Made by a program: the position numbers and the translations under genes
Assembly: GCA_037439545.1 (NCBI GenBank)
Contig: JBBIVV010000001.1
Location: 35,469 to 99,468, forward strand
DNA: 64,000 bases
Direction: 5' to 3'
Origin: a bacterium
GTDB lineage: Bacteria; JAMCPX01
Shown: positions 4,406 through 51,780 of the stretch, piece after piece
Layout of the letters: every line of letters starts with the position of its first letter
How positions within the stretch are numbered: the first letter of the stretch is position 1
The notes under the pieces: model-generated
What the model was told of the DNA's origin: nothing
The model's input: the letters and a program-made list of their open reading frames with translations, nothing else
Databases searched by the model: none

Positions 4406-5659
4406 TCAACTCCGTAAAAATGTCGATTCGATGTAGTGTATCCGCTCTGTGACCGGCGGGTGCGAGTAGTAGAATGCAGAATAGAGAGGGTGGGGGTGAA
4501 GGTTCGAGAGATTGTCTTTCGAAAGTTTTACGAGAGCGCTGACCATAGCACTGCTGTTACCCGTCAGTTTACACGCAAATGCATCGGCATCCCTCTCGTG
4601 CATCCTTGAGAATAAATTAAACAACGGTGTGAAGGGAAATGCTGCAATGGTCCCGAGCAGACCGAGTATGACGATCTTTGCAAATACCGTATGAGCGGTA
4701 AGATTGAAAAGACCGGGTAAAATGCCGCCCTGCATCAGTCTGAAGGACATAAAGAGTACTGCAAGGGAAATGACCTCCATGAGGATCATTTGTTTTAAAA
4801 CATGCTTCTTTTTCCAGTGACCGAGCTCATGTGCGAGTACCGCGAGAATCTCATCCGTATTCATGGTACTGAGGAGGGTGTCGAAGAGGACGACTCTTTT
4901 AACCCTGCCGATTCCGGTAAAATAGGCATTGGTATGTTTTGTCCTCTTTGATGCATCCATCTTCAGAACCTTGCTGATCTTTATCCCGACTTTATCGGTT
5001 AAATTATGGATGCCTGCTTTAAGATTTTCATCGTCGACAGGCGAAAATTTATTGAAGAGCGGCTCTATGACATAGGGGGACAGGTACATCATAAAGATGC
5101 TGAATATCAGGAAGAAAAGCCATACCCAGAGCCACCAGTGTAAAGGGCTCCTTGCAATGAGCCATAGACCGGCGGATATGATTAAAGATAAAAGGACTGT
5201 TGTTATTACTGTGGATTTTATGAAATCGGCGATCCATAATTTTGCCGTCATCGTATTGAATCCGTATTTCTTTTCTATCCTGAATGTCTGATATATGCTC
5301 AAAGGTATCGTAAGAAATGTGTCCGCATAAAGCAGCAGCATAAAAAATATGATGCCGGACACAATAAAATTCAAATGCAGTGAATTGATCCATGAATTAT
5401 AAGTATTCAATATGCCGGTAAAGAAAAACAGGATCATCAAGATAGTACTGAAGATCGAAGAGGCGATCCCGAACCGTGTTGAATCAACGGTATAATTTCT
5501 CGATTTGTCCAGCAATGACTGTTCTATGTGTCCTTCGAATGCAGGCGGAACGATGCTGCCGTATTTCCTCAGATAAGAAAGCTTCAGATGTTCGAGCCAG
5601 TAGCCGCACAGTACGACAATCAGGTAAGCAGTCAATAGAGAGAAAGCTGAAAAGCCCAT
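4406..5659 (-). CDS. M48-family zinc metalloprotease (Ste24/HtpX-like), polytopic membrane protein
   Basis: Multiple TM helices; HEXXH motif HELGHWKKKH at about residue 285; 417 aa. Confidence 0.7.
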   Translation of the reverse strand: MGFSAFSLLTAYLIVVLCGYWLEHLKLSYLRKYGSIVPPAFEGHIEQSLLDKSRNYTVDSTRFGIASSIFSTILMILFFFTGILNTYNSWINSLHLNFIVSGIIFFMLLLYADTFLTIPLSIYQTFRIEKKYGFNTMTAKLWIADFIKSTVITTVLLSLIISAGLWLIARSPLHWWLWVWLFFLIFSIFMMYLSPYVIEPLFNKFSPVDDENLKAGIHNLTDKVGIKISKVLKMDASKRTKHTNAYFTGIGRVKRVVLFDTLLSTMNTDEILAVLAHELGHWKKKHVLKQMILMEVISLAVLFMSFRLMQGGILPGLFNLTAHTVFAKIVILGLLGTIAAFPFTPLFNLFSRMHERDADAFACKLTGNSSAMVSALVKLSKDNLSNLHPHPLYSAFYYSHPPVTERIHYIESTFLRS

Positions 5660-45567: not shown

Positions 45568-47592
45568 ATGAAAAAGTATATACTATTAAATCTGGTAATG
45601 TTTTTGTTTGCCTATGCGGGCTGTACAAGCAGTTCGTCGTCACCAGCATCGGGCCCTAAAGTATTTTTCAAACCTGCTGCAACAGCTTCAGGTGTCGTTT
45701 ACCGGTCGATTCCATTTCCCAACGATCTTTATCTTTCAGGCAATGTATACAGCTCAGCGGGCTTCAATGCGATAGCTCCAAGCACTGATCCGAACCTTTC
45801 ATCGAGGACAGCACTGAACAACATGCTGATTCCCATGATGAACACGATAGACGGCTTTGGCACATCAGGCGCCGTGCTGTTCAGCCTGTCCGGCACCGTC
45901 GACCAGTTGACCCTGCCGCAAACAGTTCAGGCCTCGTTACAACCGACTGCGAGCGCATTCATCATCGATATAGATCAAAATTCGCCGGATTATGGAAAGC
46001 TCGCCCCTGCGGTGTTTCTTTTTACTGCAACGACTTACAATGGCACCGATTACCTTTATACGCTCGGGATCAAGCCTGCGTACGGCTATCCTCTGGCCCA
46101 AGGAACCAGGTATGCTGTTGTCATAACCACAAAGGTTAAAGGCAGCAATGGCGCAGGTCTTTCACCGGATGCGGGCTTCAATACGATAAAAACGTCTGCT
46201 GTCCTATCGGACCCTTTGCTCGAAAAGGCGAGGCAGTTGTACGCACCGCTATTTTCAATACTCTCGAAACCGCCCTATGATCTCGGCTATTCAAATATAG
46301 CCGGTGCAACGGTGTTCACGACAGAGCAAATAACGCCTGTCATACAGCATATTATATCTTGGCTCACGACGACGACCTTGCCGATTCCAAACTTCACCTC
46401 AACGACTGAGCAGTCCACGGTTATCTCCAAGCCTACATTCTCATACATCACCGGAGAATTCGCATCGCCGAACTTTCTGACTGATCCCGTATCAGGCACG
46501 ATACAGGTCGATGCGGCGGGCAATCCCATATTGCAGGGCTGGTCGACGTTGTATTTTTCTGTCACTGTGCCGGCAGCGGCACCGCCTGCAGGCGGCTATC
46601 CGGTTGCGATTGTCCAGCATGGCCTGGGCAGTGACCGGGCACAGATAATCCTGTCCGTTGCAGACCGGTTCGCACAGCATGGCATAGCATGCATCAGTAT
46701 CAATGCAGTCGATCACGGTGACAGGGCTCCGGGTGGCGACGCAACCAAAGCTACTATTGATTTTCTGAATTTTGTCGCACCATTTTCTATCCGCGATCAT
46801 TTTATTCAGACTGTTACGGACATAATCCAGCTCTCGAGGCTTGCACAGAGTCCCACGCTTACAACCTTGCTTACAACATATATGGGCAGGCCGGTCATGT
46901 TCAATACGACGAACGATACGAATCCCACTTCATACATAGGACAGTCGCTCGGCGGCATCATAGGAAGCTTTTATATAAGTGTTGCTCCCTACACGAAGAA
47001 TGCAGTGATCAATGTCGGTGGAGGGGAGCTTTCATCATTACTTATGAACTCGCCGGTCATCTACACGGAGTTTATGCCTATCATTTCGAGTATACTTGCG
47101 ATACCATCGTGGATTGTCCCTTCACTTGCTACCGATGAAGTGGTGATGTTCCAGTCTTTGATCGATCCCGGGGATTCGATGAATTACGGACGTTTCGCAC
47201 TGAAACAGCCGCTTTCAGCACTTGGATTTACGAAACAGATACTGTTCCAGATGGCTGACCTTGACCAGCTTGTTCCTCATCTATCGACAGAAGGAGAGGC
47301 AACTGCTATGGGCGTTACCGGCGTATCGAGAGGAGACACCGACCCGCTCATCGTCCTCCCTTTTTTCACCTTTACGACATATACTCCGCCGGTGAATATG
47401 AACGGTATATATCAGTACTATGGCACGCATGGTATGCTGAATACTCCTACTGATACAGTAGCGCTTGAGGAAACCTATCCGTTCGCAAAATTGGCCAATC
47501 CGCTTACCATAACCAATCCTTTAATACAGATTCAAAACCAGGCAGCGACGTTTCTCACCACGGGCGTGATTATCAATCCATGGGTTCCGTAG
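45568..47592 (+). CDS. Secreted lipoprotein with alpha/beta-hydrolase (lipase/esterase-like) core
   Basis: Lipobox LFAYAGC; GxSxG nucleophile elbow GQSLGGIIG; HGLGSD oxyanion-hole-like region; 674 aa; SD GGGAGG. Confidence 0.5.
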   Translation: MKKYILLNLVMFLFAYAGCTSSSSSPASGPKVFFKPAATASGVVYRSIPFPNDLYLSGNVYSSAGFNAIAPSTDPNLSSRTALNNMLIPMMNTIDGFGTSGAVLFSLSGTVDQLTLPQTVQASLQPTASAFIIDIDQNSPDYGKLAPAVFLFTATTYNGTDYLYTLGIKPAYGYPLAQGTRYAVVITTKVKGSNGAGLSPDAGFNTIKTSAVLSDPLLEKARQLYAPLFSILSKPPYDLGYSNIAGATVFTTEQITPVIQHIISWLTTTTLPIPNFTSTTEQSTVISKPTFSYITGEFASPNFLTDPVSGTIQVDAAGNPILQGWSTLYFSVTVPAAAPPAGGYPVAIVQHGLGSDRAQIILSVADRFAQHGIACISINAVDHGDRAPGGDATKATIDFLNFVAPFSIRDHFIQTVTDIIQLSRLAQSPTLTTLLTTYMGRPVMFNTTNDTNPTSYIGQSLGGIIGSFYISVAPYTKNAVINVGGGELSSLLMNSPVIYTEFMPIISSILAIPSWIVPSLATDEVVMFQSLIDPGDSMNYGRFALKQPLSALGFTKQILFQMADLDQLVPHLSTEGEATAMGVTGVSRGDTDPLIVLPFFTFTTYTPPVNMNGIYQYYGTHGMLNTPTDTVALEETYPFAKLANPLTITNPLIQIQNQAATFLTTGVIINPWVP

Positions 47593-47731: not shown

Positions 47732-48496
47732 ATGATAGGTATGAAGATGAAGGACATACCCTTTCCCAAAGAATACGGCTCATGGGGCATACTGCTGACA
47801 TCCTGTGTTATCGGCATATTTATTCAGGGACAGGTAACAGGGCGGACCTTTGTCTCGCTTGCAGGTATTGCGCTCCTTTTCATGACAAAAGCCCCCATAG
47901 GTATCTTTGTGAGGAGAAGGAAGATAACTTTTTTCCTATTTACGCTCGTGTATGGGGTTGCCGGCATACTTTTGCTTTTGCCAGTGGTCCTCGACTTCAG
48001 CATGAGAGACACTTTTTTTTTATTAACTATTCCCCTGATGACCGTCGGCGTATATGTTGTGTCGGCGTATTTGCACAAAGAGCGGGCATCAGTGGTTGAG
48101 CTGTTCGCAATGACAACACTCACATTGCCCGTACTGTTCTTTTATCTTCAGGGTTCAGGCAGACCTGGTATTGGTATCGTTCTTTTATGGGTTTCAACTT
48201 TTTTATATTTTTCTGCAAGTATATTTCGCGTGAAGATGCTGCTCTATAAAAAAACAGCTTACAGGATTGCGAATATCCTGTACCTTACGTTCGTATTCAT
48301 AGTTGTTTCAATCATGATCTACCTGCAATTCATCCCGCTGCTTTCTGCTGCTGCATTCACGCCATTACTCGAAAACATTACAGACACCTTCAGACATGCG
48401 CGCAGGCACAATCTTAAGCTCGTCGGCATAACGGAGCTTGTAAAAGGAACTGCTTTTGCGGTCATTATTATAATGGCCGAGAGACACATGATGTAA
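47732..48496 (+). CDS. Hypothetical polytopic membrane protein
   Basis: Seven or eight hydrophobic helices; no catalytic motif recognised. Confidence 0.4.
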   Translation: MIGMKMKDIPFPKEYGSWGILLTSCVIGIFIQGQVTGRTFVSLAGIALLFMTKAPIGIFVRRRKITFFLFTLVYGVAGILLLLPVVLDFSMRDTFFLLTIPLMTVGVYVVSAYLHKERASVVELFAMTTLTLPVLFFYLQGSGRPGIGIVLLWVSTFLYFSASIFRVKMLLYKKTAYRIANILYLTFVFIVVSIMIYLQFIPLLSAAAFTPLLENITDTFRHARRHNLKLVGITELVKGTAFAVIIIMAERHMM

Positions 48497-48779
48497 TGTT
48501 ATCCAAAAAATATTTTTTCATCTTGACAAATTAATATTCATAATGTAAAAAGAAGATAATGAAAGTAATTAATCTCAAAATTAGAGGAGATAATTATAAT
48601 TACTGAAGCAAATAATTATAATGTGATATTTTCAGAAAGTATGGAAAACATCTTTTTGGATAACCGCTCGTCTTTACCCGATCAGTTTCTTTTTAAATCC
48701 TGTTTGAATCAAACCGCATTTCTTAACCGGTCTATGATAACGCTATCAATTCATTTCAACATAAAGGAGGTGAACAATA

Positions 48780-48830
48780 ATGGCAACAAAGAAGAAAGCC
48801 AAAAAAGCAGCAAAGAAAAAGAAGAAGTAA
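48780..48830 (+). CDS. Putative 16-codon lysine-rich micro-ORF (MATKKKAKKAAKKKKK)
   Basis: ATG preceded by AAGGAGG at a 9-nt spacing; TAA stop; followed 31 nt later by a strong intrinsic terminator. Not in the ORF track, which lists an overlapping 70-aa ORF in another frame. Confidence 0.35.
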   Translation: MATKKKAKKAAKKKKK

Positions 48831-48861
48831 GCTGAACTCATTGGAATTTACCACCTGCTTA

Positions 48862-48899
48862 GGGCTGAACCTGCTTTGACAGGTTCAGCCCCTTTTTTT
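48862..48899 (+). terminator. Rho-independent terminator (GGGCTGAACCTG / CAGGTTCAGCCC + T8)
   Basis: 12-bp perfect stem, 6-nt loop, followed by CTTTTTTTC. Confidence 0.75.
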
Positions 48900-49176
48900 C
48901 ATGAAAAGATGATCCATCTGAAATAAGTATAGTAAGAATAAGAATCAACTGTCAATAAATTTATAAATAGTCGTAAAAATTATATTAATTAGCAACTTGT
49001 ATGTAGTGTGAATATGTAATATAGCTATATCTTATAACTAATAGAAATATAAGGTAATAATACGACTACACTGTAAATAATGTATATCAGGGTAAAATGT
49101 AATATTTTTGTGATTTTACAACTAATTGTAGTTGTTTATAATTCCTATTCTACATATTGGTGTTAAATGTATTGGC

Positions 49177-49962
49177 TCAAAAGTGCATAACCAGGCTCAG
49201 TCCCATGCTTAAATTGTTTAAAGGAGCAAGATATTTATTGCTATTATTGTAAAGATTGATGTGCCTGTACTTGAGTTCAGTCGCTATAGATGATGTGCTG
49301 CTTAAATATGTTTCTAAACCTATGATTCCCTGTCCCCCGATTCCAAATCCGTGAGATTCGATCTGATAAGCAGTAGTATTTTGTTTAATCTGTAATCCTG
49401 CAAGATAAACGGGTCCTACACCGGCATATAAACTGAAACTGTTCATGGGAATGAAAATCAATATGTTAACGGACAGCGGGAATCCGGAATAAGATGTATT
49501 TGTGGTGGTCCCCGAAAAATTTCCCGAGAGTATACCGTAGAGATAGTCTGCTTCACAGGACAACATCAAATCTTCCGTTAAGCCGTATCTTCCGGCTATA
49601 CCGAGATAGCCTATCGAGCCCGACTGGCTGTTAGTATCGTTTGACAGGCTCGGGTTGTCGATACTGTAGAAAGAATAGGCAAGAGAAGCTGCCGCTGACC
49701 ATGTATTTTTGATGGATCTGCCGCCCGTGTTCGGAGAAACGTAAAAGGATTCAGGCATTGCAATGGATGCAGGTGACGTGACAGCCGCTGCCGTTATGCC
49801 GTTATTCATATTCTCCGTTTCAGCTCCGTAGACCTGTGCAATTGAAAATACCGGCACGAGTAGAAACACCGATAGAGCTATTATAAGCCTTTGATACTTC
49901 TTTCCTTGTGCTTCACGAACCTCTCCTTTGACCGCGTCTCTGTTCATAATTTTATTCATCAA
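49177..49962 (-). CDS. Hypothetical outer-membrane beta-barrel protein
   Basis: Charged N-terminus + TM/signal, Gly/Ser/Tyr-rich alternating strands, C-terminus ...LSLVMHF. Confidence 0.45.
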   Translation of the reverse strand: MMNKIMNRDAVKGEVREAQGKKYQRLIIALSVFLLVPVFSIAQVYGAETENMNNGITAAAVTSPASIAMPESFYVSPNTGGRSIKNTWSAAASLAYSFYSIDNPSLSNDTNSQSGSIGYLGIAGRYGLTEDLMLSCEADYLYGILSGNFSGTTTNTSYSGFPLSVNILIFIPMNSFSLYAGVGPVYLAGLQIKQNTTAYQIESHGFGIGGQGIIGLETYLSSTSSIATELKYRHINLYNNSNKYLAPLNNLSMGLSLVMHF

Positions 49963-49995: not shown

Positions 49996-51780
49996 TCAAT
50001 CCTTCTCATACAGGGCATCGAGCCGTGCTTTAAAATGTTCTATGACTATGTTTTTCTTTATCTTCATCGTTGGAGTGAGCTCGCCTGATTGCAGAGTAAA
50101 CTCATGGTCCGACAGTATGAATTTTTTTATCGTTTCGAATGATGCAAGCTTATCATTAAACCTGTCAATTTTCTGCTTTATGAATTCATAGACCCGTGTG
50201 CTCTGCGTCAGATCGGCATAATCATTGAAAGGCACGTTGTTCTGCCTTGCCCATTCAAATATTTCCTGCTCATTGAGCACGAGAACTGCCGTCAGATACT
50301 TCTTGTTGTCTCCGAATGCAACACACTGCGCAATATACGGATCTGTCGTAAACAGGTTTTCGATGTTCTGAGGTGTTATATTTTTGCCTCCTGCAGTTAT
50401 GATGAGGTCTTTCTTTCTGCCTGTGATCCTGACAAAACCATCTTTATCGATGTCACCGAGATCGCCCGAATGGAGCCAGCCCTGCTCATCGATCATTGCA
50501 GGTGTCCCTTCAGGTTTTTTATAATAACCTTTGAAAACAGCGGGACCTTTCATAAGAATCTCGCCGTCATCCGCTATCTTTACCTGCATGCTTGGGAGAG
50601 GTTGCCCGACATAGCCTATCTTGAACTTTCCCTCATAACTGACGATTGCCGGAGCAAATGTCTCTGTCATGCCATAGCCTTCGTATATGGGGATACCGAG
50701 TGCATTGAAGAATTCAATTATGGTGGGCGACAGAGGGGCTGCGGCAGTAATCCCTATCCTCAATCTCCCGCCTAATTTCTTTTTCAGCTTATTGAAGACA
50801 AGAGCATTTGCTACGATGTAATTCATTTTTAACCGGCATGGCAGTGGCTTTTTTGCAAGCCTGTAGGGCAGGGATGCCTTTCCGGTATCCAATGCCCAGT
50901 TAAACAGGACCTTCTTGATCTTCGGTCCATTCTGAATCTCGTTGATAATGCGTGCGTAGATCTTTTCATACACCCTTGGCACGCCCGGGAGTATGGTCGG
51001 TCTTACCTCTAAAATATTTTTTGCGACTGTATCGAGGCTTTCTGCGTAAGCATATATCATGCGTACATATATGGCTCCGAACTGGTTTATTCTTTCGTAT
51101 GCATGTGCAAGCGGCAGATAGCCGAGCGTTATGTCACCGGGCATATTGAATGTCAGAGTCAGAAGATCTTTCAGGTTTGCAATAATATTTTCATGAATAA
51201 TCTCGGCGCCCTTTGGCGGTCCTGTCGTTCCCGATGTGTATATAATGGTTGCGGTATCATTCATCGTTATCCTGTTCATGCGGGTTTTTATCTCGTCAGG
51301 ATTGAGGTTGTCTTCTCCAAGTTTCTCAAGCTGTCGTAAGGTAATGACCTTGTCGTTTTTTACGGATACGTCTTCGAAAACTATGATTTTACCGATCTTC
51401 GGCAGATCCCCGATAACATTCAGTACCCTGTTTAGTGCAGCGTCATTCTCGACAAAAACAGCCCTTGAATCGGAATTATCAAGAATAAATCTGACATCAT
51501 GATCAAGCAAGGACGGATATATCGTTGCAGTAATCCCTCGTAAAGACAGAATAGCCATATCTGCCAGTGTCCACTCGACCCTTGTCGATCCCATTATGGC
51601 AATCTTGTCCGTTTCATTGATGCCAAGCTTGATAAGGCCTGAAGCAATCTTCTCGACCCTGGTCCAGAACCATTGAGCCGATCTGGTCACATATATATCC
51701 TTTTCTTTGAACATCAATGCAGGGTCGTCAGGCATATCTTTTGCCCTCTTGTAGAGACTATGAACTATATTTTCTTCCAT
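49996..51780 (-). CDS. Long-chain-fatty-acid--CoA ligase (AMP-binding family)
   Basis: AMP-binding motif YTSGTTGPPKGA; motif II/III regions (GYGMTE, TGDLG); 594 aa. Confidence 0.8.
   Translation of the reverse strand: MEENIVHSLYKRAKDMPDDPALMFKEKDIYVTRSAQWFWTRVEKIASGLIKLGINETDKIAIMGSTRVEWTLADMAILSLRGITATIYPSLLDHDVRFILDNSDSRAVFVENDAALNRVLNVIGDLPKIGKIIVFEDVSVKNDKVITLRQLEKLGEDNLNPDEIKTRMNRITMNDTATIIYTSGTTGPPKGAEIIHENIIANLKDLLTLTFNMPGDITLGYLPLAHAYERINQFGAIYVRMIYAYAESLDTVAKNILEVRPTILPGVPRVYEKIYARIINEIQNGPKIKKVLFNWALDTGKASLPYRLAKKPLPCRLKMNYIVANALVFNKLKKKLGGRLRIGITAAAPLSPTIIEFFNALGIPIYEGYGMTETFAPAIVSYEGKFKIGYVGQPLPSMQVKIADDGEILMKGPAVFKGYYKKPEGTPAMIDEQGWLHSGDLGDIDKDGFVRITGRKKDLIITAGGKNITPQNIENLFTTDPYIAQCVAFGDNKKYLTAVLVLNEQEIFEWARQNNVPFNDYADLTQSTRVYEFIKQKIDRFNDKLASFETIKKFILSDHEFTLQSGELTPTMKIKKNIVIEHFKARLDALYEKD

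Follow-up and report, generated by a model that had tools for sequence, protein, structure and literature searches.

A very short, probably protein-coding mini-gene for a poly-lysine peptide is conserved in several bacterial lineages

A 64,000-nucleotide stretch of contig JBBIVV010000001.1 (assembly GCA_037439545.1; hereafter the window) carries, at 48780–48830 on the plus strand, an open reading frame (ORF) of 16 codons and a TAA stop, whose predicted product is MATKKKAKKAAKKKKK. Comparison of this mini-ORF with its counterparts in related and metagenomic loci indicates that it is very probably a real coding gene under selection. The reading that we favour, and to which we give an even chance, is that of a stand-alone translated mini-gene encoding a polycationic peptide that would act in trans, with ribosomes or nucleic acids as its most plausible targets. 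The comparative support consists of coding-type substitutions, insertions and deletions that stay in frame, an invariant ATG and Shine–Dalgarno (SD) sequence, a closing stop codon that is TAA (once TAG), and a peptide that is kept while the untranslated regions (UTRs) diverge. An initial annotation, made from the window alone, had offered a Lys-rich micro-protein among several readings, which these observations bear out, and had called the ORF an orphan, a word that no longer applies because it has many homologues: the same unit recurs in nine further loci and in a metagenome family.

The mini-ORF reads ATG GCA ACA AAG AAG AAA GCC AAA AAA GCA GCA AAG AAA AAG AAG AAG TAA, and its product contains 10 Lys, 4 Ala, 1 Thr, and 1 Met (62% Lys), with no hydrophobic stretch. 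It is preceded by an extended, 10-nt SD, AAAGGAGGTGA, at 48763–48773 (plus strand), in which GGAGG ends 9 nt before the ATG; the ORF, its stop, and its consensus SD are thus as initially described. The GGAGGTG of the SD is invariant across all loci of the window lineage. An intrinsic terminator follows at 48862–48899 (plus strand), with a stem–loop at 48862–48891 made of 12 bp (8 G–C) and a loop of 6 nt. It begins 31 nt past the stop codon, and here the earlier description (a 12-bp stem about 30 nt downstream) holds except for the run of eight T residues, which is in fact a C followed by seven T residues (48892–48899). The terminator scan found two sites in 900 nt against 0.4 expected. The terminator is kept in relatives; one pair shows compensatory changes in L005/L007, and L138 has more stem changes (loci are cited by our numbers, L001 being the window's own contig); on the minus strand, the hairpin is not terminator-like and no T-run lies behind it. 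Between the stop codon and the terminator, a 3′ UTR at 48831–48861 (plus strand) has a shared motif, xTGAAC...ATTTgAC..ACTGCtTA. On both strands of the 64-kb window, the mini-ORF is the sole ATG-started ORF of 10–30 codons with at least 55% Lys.

The unit lies between a YwiC-like membrane protein gene (47732–48496, plus strand) upstream and a gene for a beta-barrel outer-membrane protein (OMP; 49177–49962, minus strand) beyond it, and the OMP gene is followed by one for an acyl-CoA ligase (49996–51780, minus strand). The window has no same-strand gene downstream of the mini-ORF, as had been stated at the outset. Relatives were retrieved as homologues of the YwiC-like neighbour, and the mini-ORF was not used in the retrieval. 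The YwiC-like proteins of these relatives are 48–59% identical to that of the window, and the YwiC-like and OMP genes flank the mini-gene unit in nine further loci of related uncultured bacteria. Conservation in relatives had been named as a check, and the unit proves to be retained in every locus that keeps the YwiC–OMP pair (L002, L005, L007, L009, L010, L011, L138/L139, and L141). The peptide conforms to MATKKKAKK(A/T)(A/T/S)KKKK(K) in L002, L005, L007, L009, L010, L011, L128, L138/139, and L141. The window lineage is deposited as "Deltaproteobacteria bacterium" or "bacterium".

The substitution pattern bears on the further question, raised with the first description, of whether codons or nucleotides are constrained. 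Across codons 1–13 in seven loci, third codon positions vary at seven sites, all of them synonymous, first positions at two sites (Ala/Thr/Ser at residues 10–11), and second positions at none, which is a coding-type pattern; L138 and L141 conform to it as well. Length variants of the window-lineage peptide differ by whole Lys codons. Mean pairwise identity in the window-lineage alignment is highest in the ORF (0.89), followed by the SD (0.84), the terminator (0.81), a convergent promoter-like element beyond the terminator (P2, 0.75), the 5′ block of the leader (0.73), the 3′ UTR (0.60), the middle of the leader (0.50), and the spacer past the terminator (0.44).

A wider family emerges from a scan of metagenome contigs with the pattern GGAGG-N6-12-ATGGCNACNAARAARAARGCNAARAAR, which at least 120 loci matched. 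The scan took no account of gene context, and only the codons beyond the pattern, the architecture, and the loci derived by synteny serve as independent evidence. A mini-ORF of 12–20 codons that closes soon after the pattern is present in at least 100 of the listed loci (about 100), and a terminator-like hairpin stands behind nearly all of these mini-ORFs. In every mini-gene locus the frame opens with ATG and closes with TAA or, rarely, TAG, and every member has its own SD. The peptide is MATKKKAKKKKH in 84 of the listed loci and MATKKKAKKKKKH in 12. Also among the listed matches are MATKKKAKKAAKKKK, which is the window peptide less one Lys, as is the peptide of L077/L124; MATKKKAKKATKKKK, which is identical to a window-lineage peptide; and MATKKKAKKAATKKKK, MATKKKAKKTAKRK, and MATKKKAKKKTAKRKAAKKR. 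The same or nearly the same peptide is found under unrelated UTRs in L120/L121, L014, L077/L124, L023/L109, and L103. In about 15 scan matches, the pattern opens a long Lys/Ala-rich or SWIB-like protein of unrelated architecture, and the matches in viral contigs are confined to the starts of long proteins.

The soil-metagenome family spans L014–L133 (for example L015 at 688–726, L103, L023, and L077). Through the names of neighbouring proteins, L103 can be assigned to Terriglobales (Acidobacteriota), L054 to Omnitrophota, and L061 to Candidatus Falkowbacteria; the other soil-group loci are taken as Terriglobales-type on the basis of shared synteny and conserved UTRs, L103 being the only one placed by neighbour names. 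Single mini-gene versions occur in Omnitrophota (L054) and Falkowbacteria (L061), and by these sequence-based assignments the family is present in at least four bacterial lineages. The versions in Terriglobales-type soil contigs, about 100 among the listed loci, have 12–16 codons and each come with a promoter, an SD, and a terminator. The Terriglobales unit has a promoter of the form TTGACA-17-CAATAT, about 105 nt of 5′ UTR with a hairpin, the SD, the ORF, a 3′ UTR hairpin, and the terminator. In its codons beyond the pattern, only synonymous changes (AAG/AAA, CAC/CAT, and TAA/TAG) or insertions and deletions of whole Lys codons are seen. Conservation collapses directly past the terminator, a drop that delimits an independent transcription unit. 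We also considered programmed −1 frameshifting at A-AAA-AAG within the Terriglobales ORF and rejected it, since neither a stop nor the sequence is conserved in the −1 frame.

The genomic surroundings of the mini-gene differ among the lineages. In Acidobacteriota-type loci, a divergent hydantoinase B/oxoprolinase gene lies on one side and a same-strand MerR-family gene on the other, the latter 50–320 nt past the terminator in at least 39 loci; no MerR-like neighbour is found in the window or in the window-lineage loci. The next gene is convergent to the unit in the window lineage as well as in L054 and L061, and none of the three has a same-strand gene downstream. The mini-gene thus stands alone in at least three contexts, which argues against a general role as a cis-regulatory leader and for a trans-acting product. 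The earlier view of a self-contained transcription unit is supported.

In the proposed mechanism, transcription from a sigma-70-type promoter (P1) would yield a roughly 340-nt mRNA that has a long leader, the very strong SD would load ribosomes onto the 16-codon ORF, and the intrinsic terminator would close the transcript. Nearly all members have their own terminator, and a conserved promoter is present in the two well-sampled lineages. Methionine aminopeptidase is expected, from its established specificity, to remove the initiator Met before Ala, so that the functional product would be a peptide of 15 residues, 10 of them Lys, in the window; the Met-less forms are expected to be ATKKKAKKKKH or ATKKKAKKAAKKKKK. 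The peptide would then bind in trans a polyanionic, highly conserved target, preferentially the ribosome or rRNA and secondarily other RNA, DNA, or polyphosphate; such a specific partner is favoured because distant lineages conserve the order of the residues and not just their composition. P2 would additionally restrain or switch expression in the window lineage. Transcription, translation, the stability of the peptide, its binding target, and the antisense RNA are all steps that we infer from sequence.

Tiny basic ribosomal peptides are known in the form of eukaryotic eL41 and bacterial Thx. A precedent is set by others that escaped annotation until cryo-EM maps revealed them, such as bL37 (24 residues) and the eL41-like protein of mycobacteria (PMC5876184) and CLaSP of Coxiella, with 22 residues (bioRxiv 10.1101/2025.11.08.686982). 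Like bL37, the eL41-like protein, and CLaSP, the mini-gene product is very short and very basic, and it is encoded by a stand-alone gene that annotation has missed and that is lineage-restricted yet conserved. Unlike bL37 and CLaSP, the peptide is shorter still (12–16 residues), consists almost entirely of Lys, Ala, and Thr, occurs in several phyla rather than in one clade, and has no linkage to ribosomal genes. Within the favoured reading, a more specific proposal is that the 11–15-residue poly-lysine peptide (ATKKKAKK...) of Acidobacteriota, Omnitrophota, bacteria of the candidate phyla radiation, and the lineage labelled "Deltaproteobacteria" is an integral component of a universal machine, most likely the ribosome, as a counterpart of the eL41/bL37-type filler peptides, with convergent antisense control in one lineage; we put this forward tentatively, as a minority possibility.

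Several observations weigh against the favoured reading. The unit is absent at this position in one related lineage (L003/L004/L008) and in L137 and L140, where synteny is broken. The first nine codons are fixed by the scan pattern, and their conservation among the scan matches is circular. In Terriglobales, conservation of the UTRs and even of the synonymous sites nearly equals that of the amino acids, which points to an additional constraint at the RNA level. None of the contexts examined links the unit to ribosomal genes, and a strong convergent promoter such as P2 is unusual for a housekeeping gene of ribosomal type. The ribosome or a nucleic acid is suggested as the target only by the charge of the peptide and its conservation across phyla. 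The support as a whole comes from sequence comparison, and all loci come from uncultured organisms.

Upstream of the SD, the candidate promoter P1 extends over 48505–48552 on the plus strand, with an A/T-rich tract at 48505–48522 and a −35 element, TTGACA, at 48523–48528. It is predicted to be of the sigma-70 type. Its −10 element is ambiguous in the window, being either CATAAT at 48539–48544 or TGTAAAAAG at 48544–48552, and the promoter scan lists 48515–48544. The relatives have TTGACA-N18-TA(g/a/t)TTT, with TG just 5′ of the −10, and all loci of the window lineage have "atcTTGACAaa" behind an A/T tract, 234–339 nt before the ATG. From the predicted transcription start, a 5′ leader of about 200–220 nt occupies 48559–48762 (plus strand). 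Its conserved 5′ block (48567–48605, plus strand) contains a short hairpin that overlaps an SD-like AGAGGAGA (48583–48590), followed by ATTACTG; the hairpin has 7 bp (CTTTAAT/ATTAAAG) in relatives (L002 at about 4850–4890) and is weaker in the window. The block may be an mRNA-stabilizing or ribosome stand-by element, and as a lead it recalls the 5′ "STAB-SD" mRNA stabilizers of Bacillus. An upstream ORF behind the SD-like AAAGGAGA of the leader was rejected, as neither its start nor its frame is conserved in the window-lineage alignments. Pyrimidine-rich tracts lie at 48649–48702; a pairing of the leader pyrimidine tract with the purine-rich ORF, suggested by RNAalifold, was rejected as well, as its duplex energies did not consistently beat those of shuffled leaders (z-scores of +1.4 to −2.7).

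Beyond the terminator, the convergent promoter P2 (TTGACA-N18-TATACT, sigma-70-type) lies at 48926–48955 on the minus strand and points left into the terminator, the ORF, and the SD. It scores 11/12 in the promoter scan, and it is the only match to TTGACA-N18-TATANT within the 64 kb, against 0.04 expected. The pattern is present in eight loci, namely the window's own contig (L001) and the relatives L002 (5192–5221), L005 (4189–4218), L007 (2244–2273), L009 (4185–4214), L010 (4298–4327), L011 (4276–4305), and L128 (205–234), and in none of 128 other loci; L141 also has it, and L138 has it with the variant TATATA. In the window lineage, P2 lies 35–60 nt past the terminator. Its transcript, if made, would be fully complementary to the terminator, the ORF, and the SD. 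P2 is therefore a candidate antisense promoter, and it probably provides antisense or transcription-interference control of the mini-gene in the window lineage. A minus-strand scan found no terminator for the putative antisense RNA, and the Terriglobales units have no P2-like conserved element beyond their terminators.

The opposite strand of the unit contains no reading frame that is conserved among the related loci. In L002, a gene of 70 residues was called by a metagenome pipeline antisense to the unit (4979–5191, minus strand), and it is the only gene called across the unit in a relative. This Phe/Leu-rich minus-strand ORF was rejected as spurious, as every other locus breaks its frame, its stops differ in each locus, and its start is not conserved. 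Farther out, the 220-nt spacer from P2 to the end of the OMP gene (48956–49176) is very A/T-rich and contains a further strong plus-strand promoter-like site at 49115–49142 (TTTACA-16-TATAAT, 11/12) that faces the 3′ end of the OMP gene. Immediately 5′ of the YwiC-like gene, the window encodes a protein of 674 residues (45568–47592, plus strand) that matches no Pfam family and whose N-terminus, MKKYILLNLVMFLFAYAGC, is lipoprotein-like. In the position after the OMP gene, where the window has the acyl-CoA ligase, L002 and L138/L139 have a COX1 gene (haem–copper oxidase subunit I), and the contig of L141 stops before that gene. L002, L138/L139, L141, and the window all keep the YwiC-like gene, the mini-gene, and the OMP gene together, a linkage that may be informative.

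Two side observations concern the metagenome set. The start MATKKKAKK is also found in Lys/Ala-rich, histone-H1-like proteins of 57–167 residues (L051, L067, L073, L079, L105, L117, and L132) and in proteins of 95–99 residues in L052 and L080 that look SWIB-like by sequence; this common start may have arisen by convergence, the N-terminus being a favourable one, or may point to a distant relationship. In L111, at about 903–911, the pattern occurs on both strands with identical upstream sequence, opening a 16-residue ORF on one strand and a 104-residue ORF on the other, which suggests an inverted duplication or a chimeric assembly.

Other explanations of the unit have to be weighed against the favoured one. 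A dual-function or mainly regulatory small RNA (sRNA), in which a transcript of about 225–340 nt is the effector and translation of the ORF is a side activity or modulates the RNA, is unlikely; known dual-function sRNAs include SgrS/SgrT, RNAIII/hld, and SR1/SR1P. Such an RNA would have a single-stranded A/G-rich (ARN-like) tract between hairpins and a terminator U-tail, as Hfq-type sRNAs do. The mini-gene shares with the dual-function sRNAs a short, terminator-bounded transcript with conserved structured UTRs and a small ORF: in Terriglobales-type loci, the transcript is 80–99% conserved per column from promoter to terminator, including the UTRs and most synonymous sites, and the 3′ UTR hairpin and the terminator covary by alifold counts, the covariation of the 5′ hairpin having been seen by eye in the alignment only. 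The window unit also folds better than its shuffles (z = −2.8), chiefly owing to the terminator. The AAR triplets fit the ARN motif, and third-position A/G changes would be tolerable opposite U-rich targets. These sRNA-like features (the U-tail terminator, the A-R-N tract, and the structured flanks) are present, yet they are equally demanded of a Lys-coding mRNA. Between lineages, the UTRs cannot be aligned, while the ATG, SD, frame, stop, and peptide persist, so that the ORF is the only part conserved, unlike in the dual-function sRNAs; a base-pairing target or a chaperone link is not known. In the Ala and Thr codons, any of the four bases may stand at the third position whereas positions 1 and 2 never vary, all length changes are multiples of three, and no Rfam family other than tRNA is matched in the window unit or in 20 related loci. 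The initial suggestion of an sRNA with an incidental A-rich tract is not supported as the sole function, and it stands as a possible additional role at the RNA level, given the UTR conservation and covarying hairpins of Terriglobales.

The composition of the ORF (62% Lys, with a terminator behind it) also recalls the trpL, pheL, and hisL leader peptides, which share with it a 12–20-codon ORF rich in one amino acid, a good SD, and a downstream terminator hairpin. A Lys-codon leader peptide or attenuator would act in cis as a translational sensor that reports lysyl-tRNA or ribosome status and controls read-through of the terminator, into the MerR-family gene in Acidobacteriota or antisense to the OMP gene in the window. 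The same-strand MerR-family gene of the Acidobacteriota-type loci fits this idea, which we nevertheless regard as improbable. Unlike trpL, pheL, and hisL, the mini-gene has no gene to regulate in three contexts (the window lineage, Omnitrophota, and Falkowbacteria), and its exact peptide sequence, beyond its Lys content, is conserved across phyla. The terminator, 31 nt past the stop, is too far away and out of the reach of a terminating ribosome, no conserved antiterminator or other alternative to the terminator hairpin appears in single-sequence or alignment folds, and conservation stops at the terminator. No lysine-metabolism genes lie near the unit in the window or in the Acidobacteriota-type loci, the MerR-family regulator not being a lysine gene, and no same-strand gene tied to lysine was found. 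The ribosome-stalling poly(A)/poly-Lys leader envisaged at first is likewise not upheld as a cis-regulator: the longest A-run is 7, a length too short for poly(A) sliding, which was rejected on this ground.

Type I toxin–antitoxin loci with a 3′-overlapping antisense RNA, such as txpA/RatA, bsrG/SR4, and fst/RNA II of Bacillus and Enterococcus, resemble the window-lineage version in their short ORF, long leader, and convergent promoter past the terminator, all of which are present in every window-lineage locus. A module of this kind, in which the peptide would be harmful in excess and the P2 RNA would be a cis-antisense antitoxin that blocks translation or triggers mRNA cleavage, is a doubtful explanation. 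The peptide is polycationic and has no hydrophobic segment, unlike the membrane helices of the membrane-active type I toxins. Only one copy was seen, always at one syntenic position and next to neighbours that are 48–59% identical to that of the window, a pattern that suits a core gene better than a mobile addiction module; in addition, the Acidobacteriota (Terriglobales) units lack the antisense element, and the antisense RNA has no terminator that could be found. That the ORF arose by chance in an A-rich spacer, or is what remains of the N-terminus of a decayed Lys/Ala-rich histone-like gene, is effectively refuted. The long Lys/Ala-rich and SWIB-like metagenome proteins with the same first nine residues would fit a remnant, but none of 300 first-order Markov simulations of the window yielded a comparable Lys-rich ORF, different lineages keep the stop codon, the SD, and the terminator, and there is no trace of a decayed downstream reading frame.

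The reading of a stand-alone, trans-acting mini-gene agrees with the small-ORF category of intergenic-region surveys, which is marked by a conserved start and stop, coding-compatible conservation, and no consistent regulatory placement (PMC11109978). Start and stop are present in all loci, the substitutions are of the coding type, and the mini-gene is not consistently placed to regulate a main ORF. The small ORFs of that survey form a category and not a family, and poly-Lys small ORFs are not mentioned ("lysine" occurs 0 times in the text). An Rfam scan, proposed with the first description, returned no family: at a permissive E-value, the best match of the window unit reached 24.4 bits against a threshold of 60, and with gathering thresholds, only tRNAs reached threshold in the 20 related loci. 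NCBIfam had no match for a 20-residue variant or for the doubled window peptide (the native peptides are shorter than 20 residues), and an exact look-up did not find the 20-residue variant in a collection of 15 billion protein sequences. The literature searched contains no description of the peptide string, of poly-lysine small ORFs, or of lysine-rich small proteins of this kind. The kind of feature, a microprotein encoded by a small ORF and possibly a ribosome-type basic peptide, is known, and the multi-phylum family of 12–16-codon poly-Lys genes appears to be undescribed.

On this comparative evidence, the mini-gene is probably among the shortest conserved protein-coding genes known. Genes of 12–16 codons escape every standard gene caller, and purifying selection on such a gene is visible here from comparative data alone, in several phyla and at least 100 environmental loci. 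The window-lineage version offers a compact, testable case of convergent-promoter control around a mini-gene. If the peptide is made, conserved proteins encoded by stand-alone bacterial genes would extend to smaller sizes than before; the peptide would provide a simple, synthesizable ligand, with the ribosome, nucleoid, RNA, or polyphosphate as directly testable targets, and it would be a candidate for unassigned cryo-EM density in Acidobacteriota ribosomes. If it were indeed a component of a universal machine, most likely the ribosome, no shorter conserved gene product that acts in trans and is unprocessed would have been described in bacteria.

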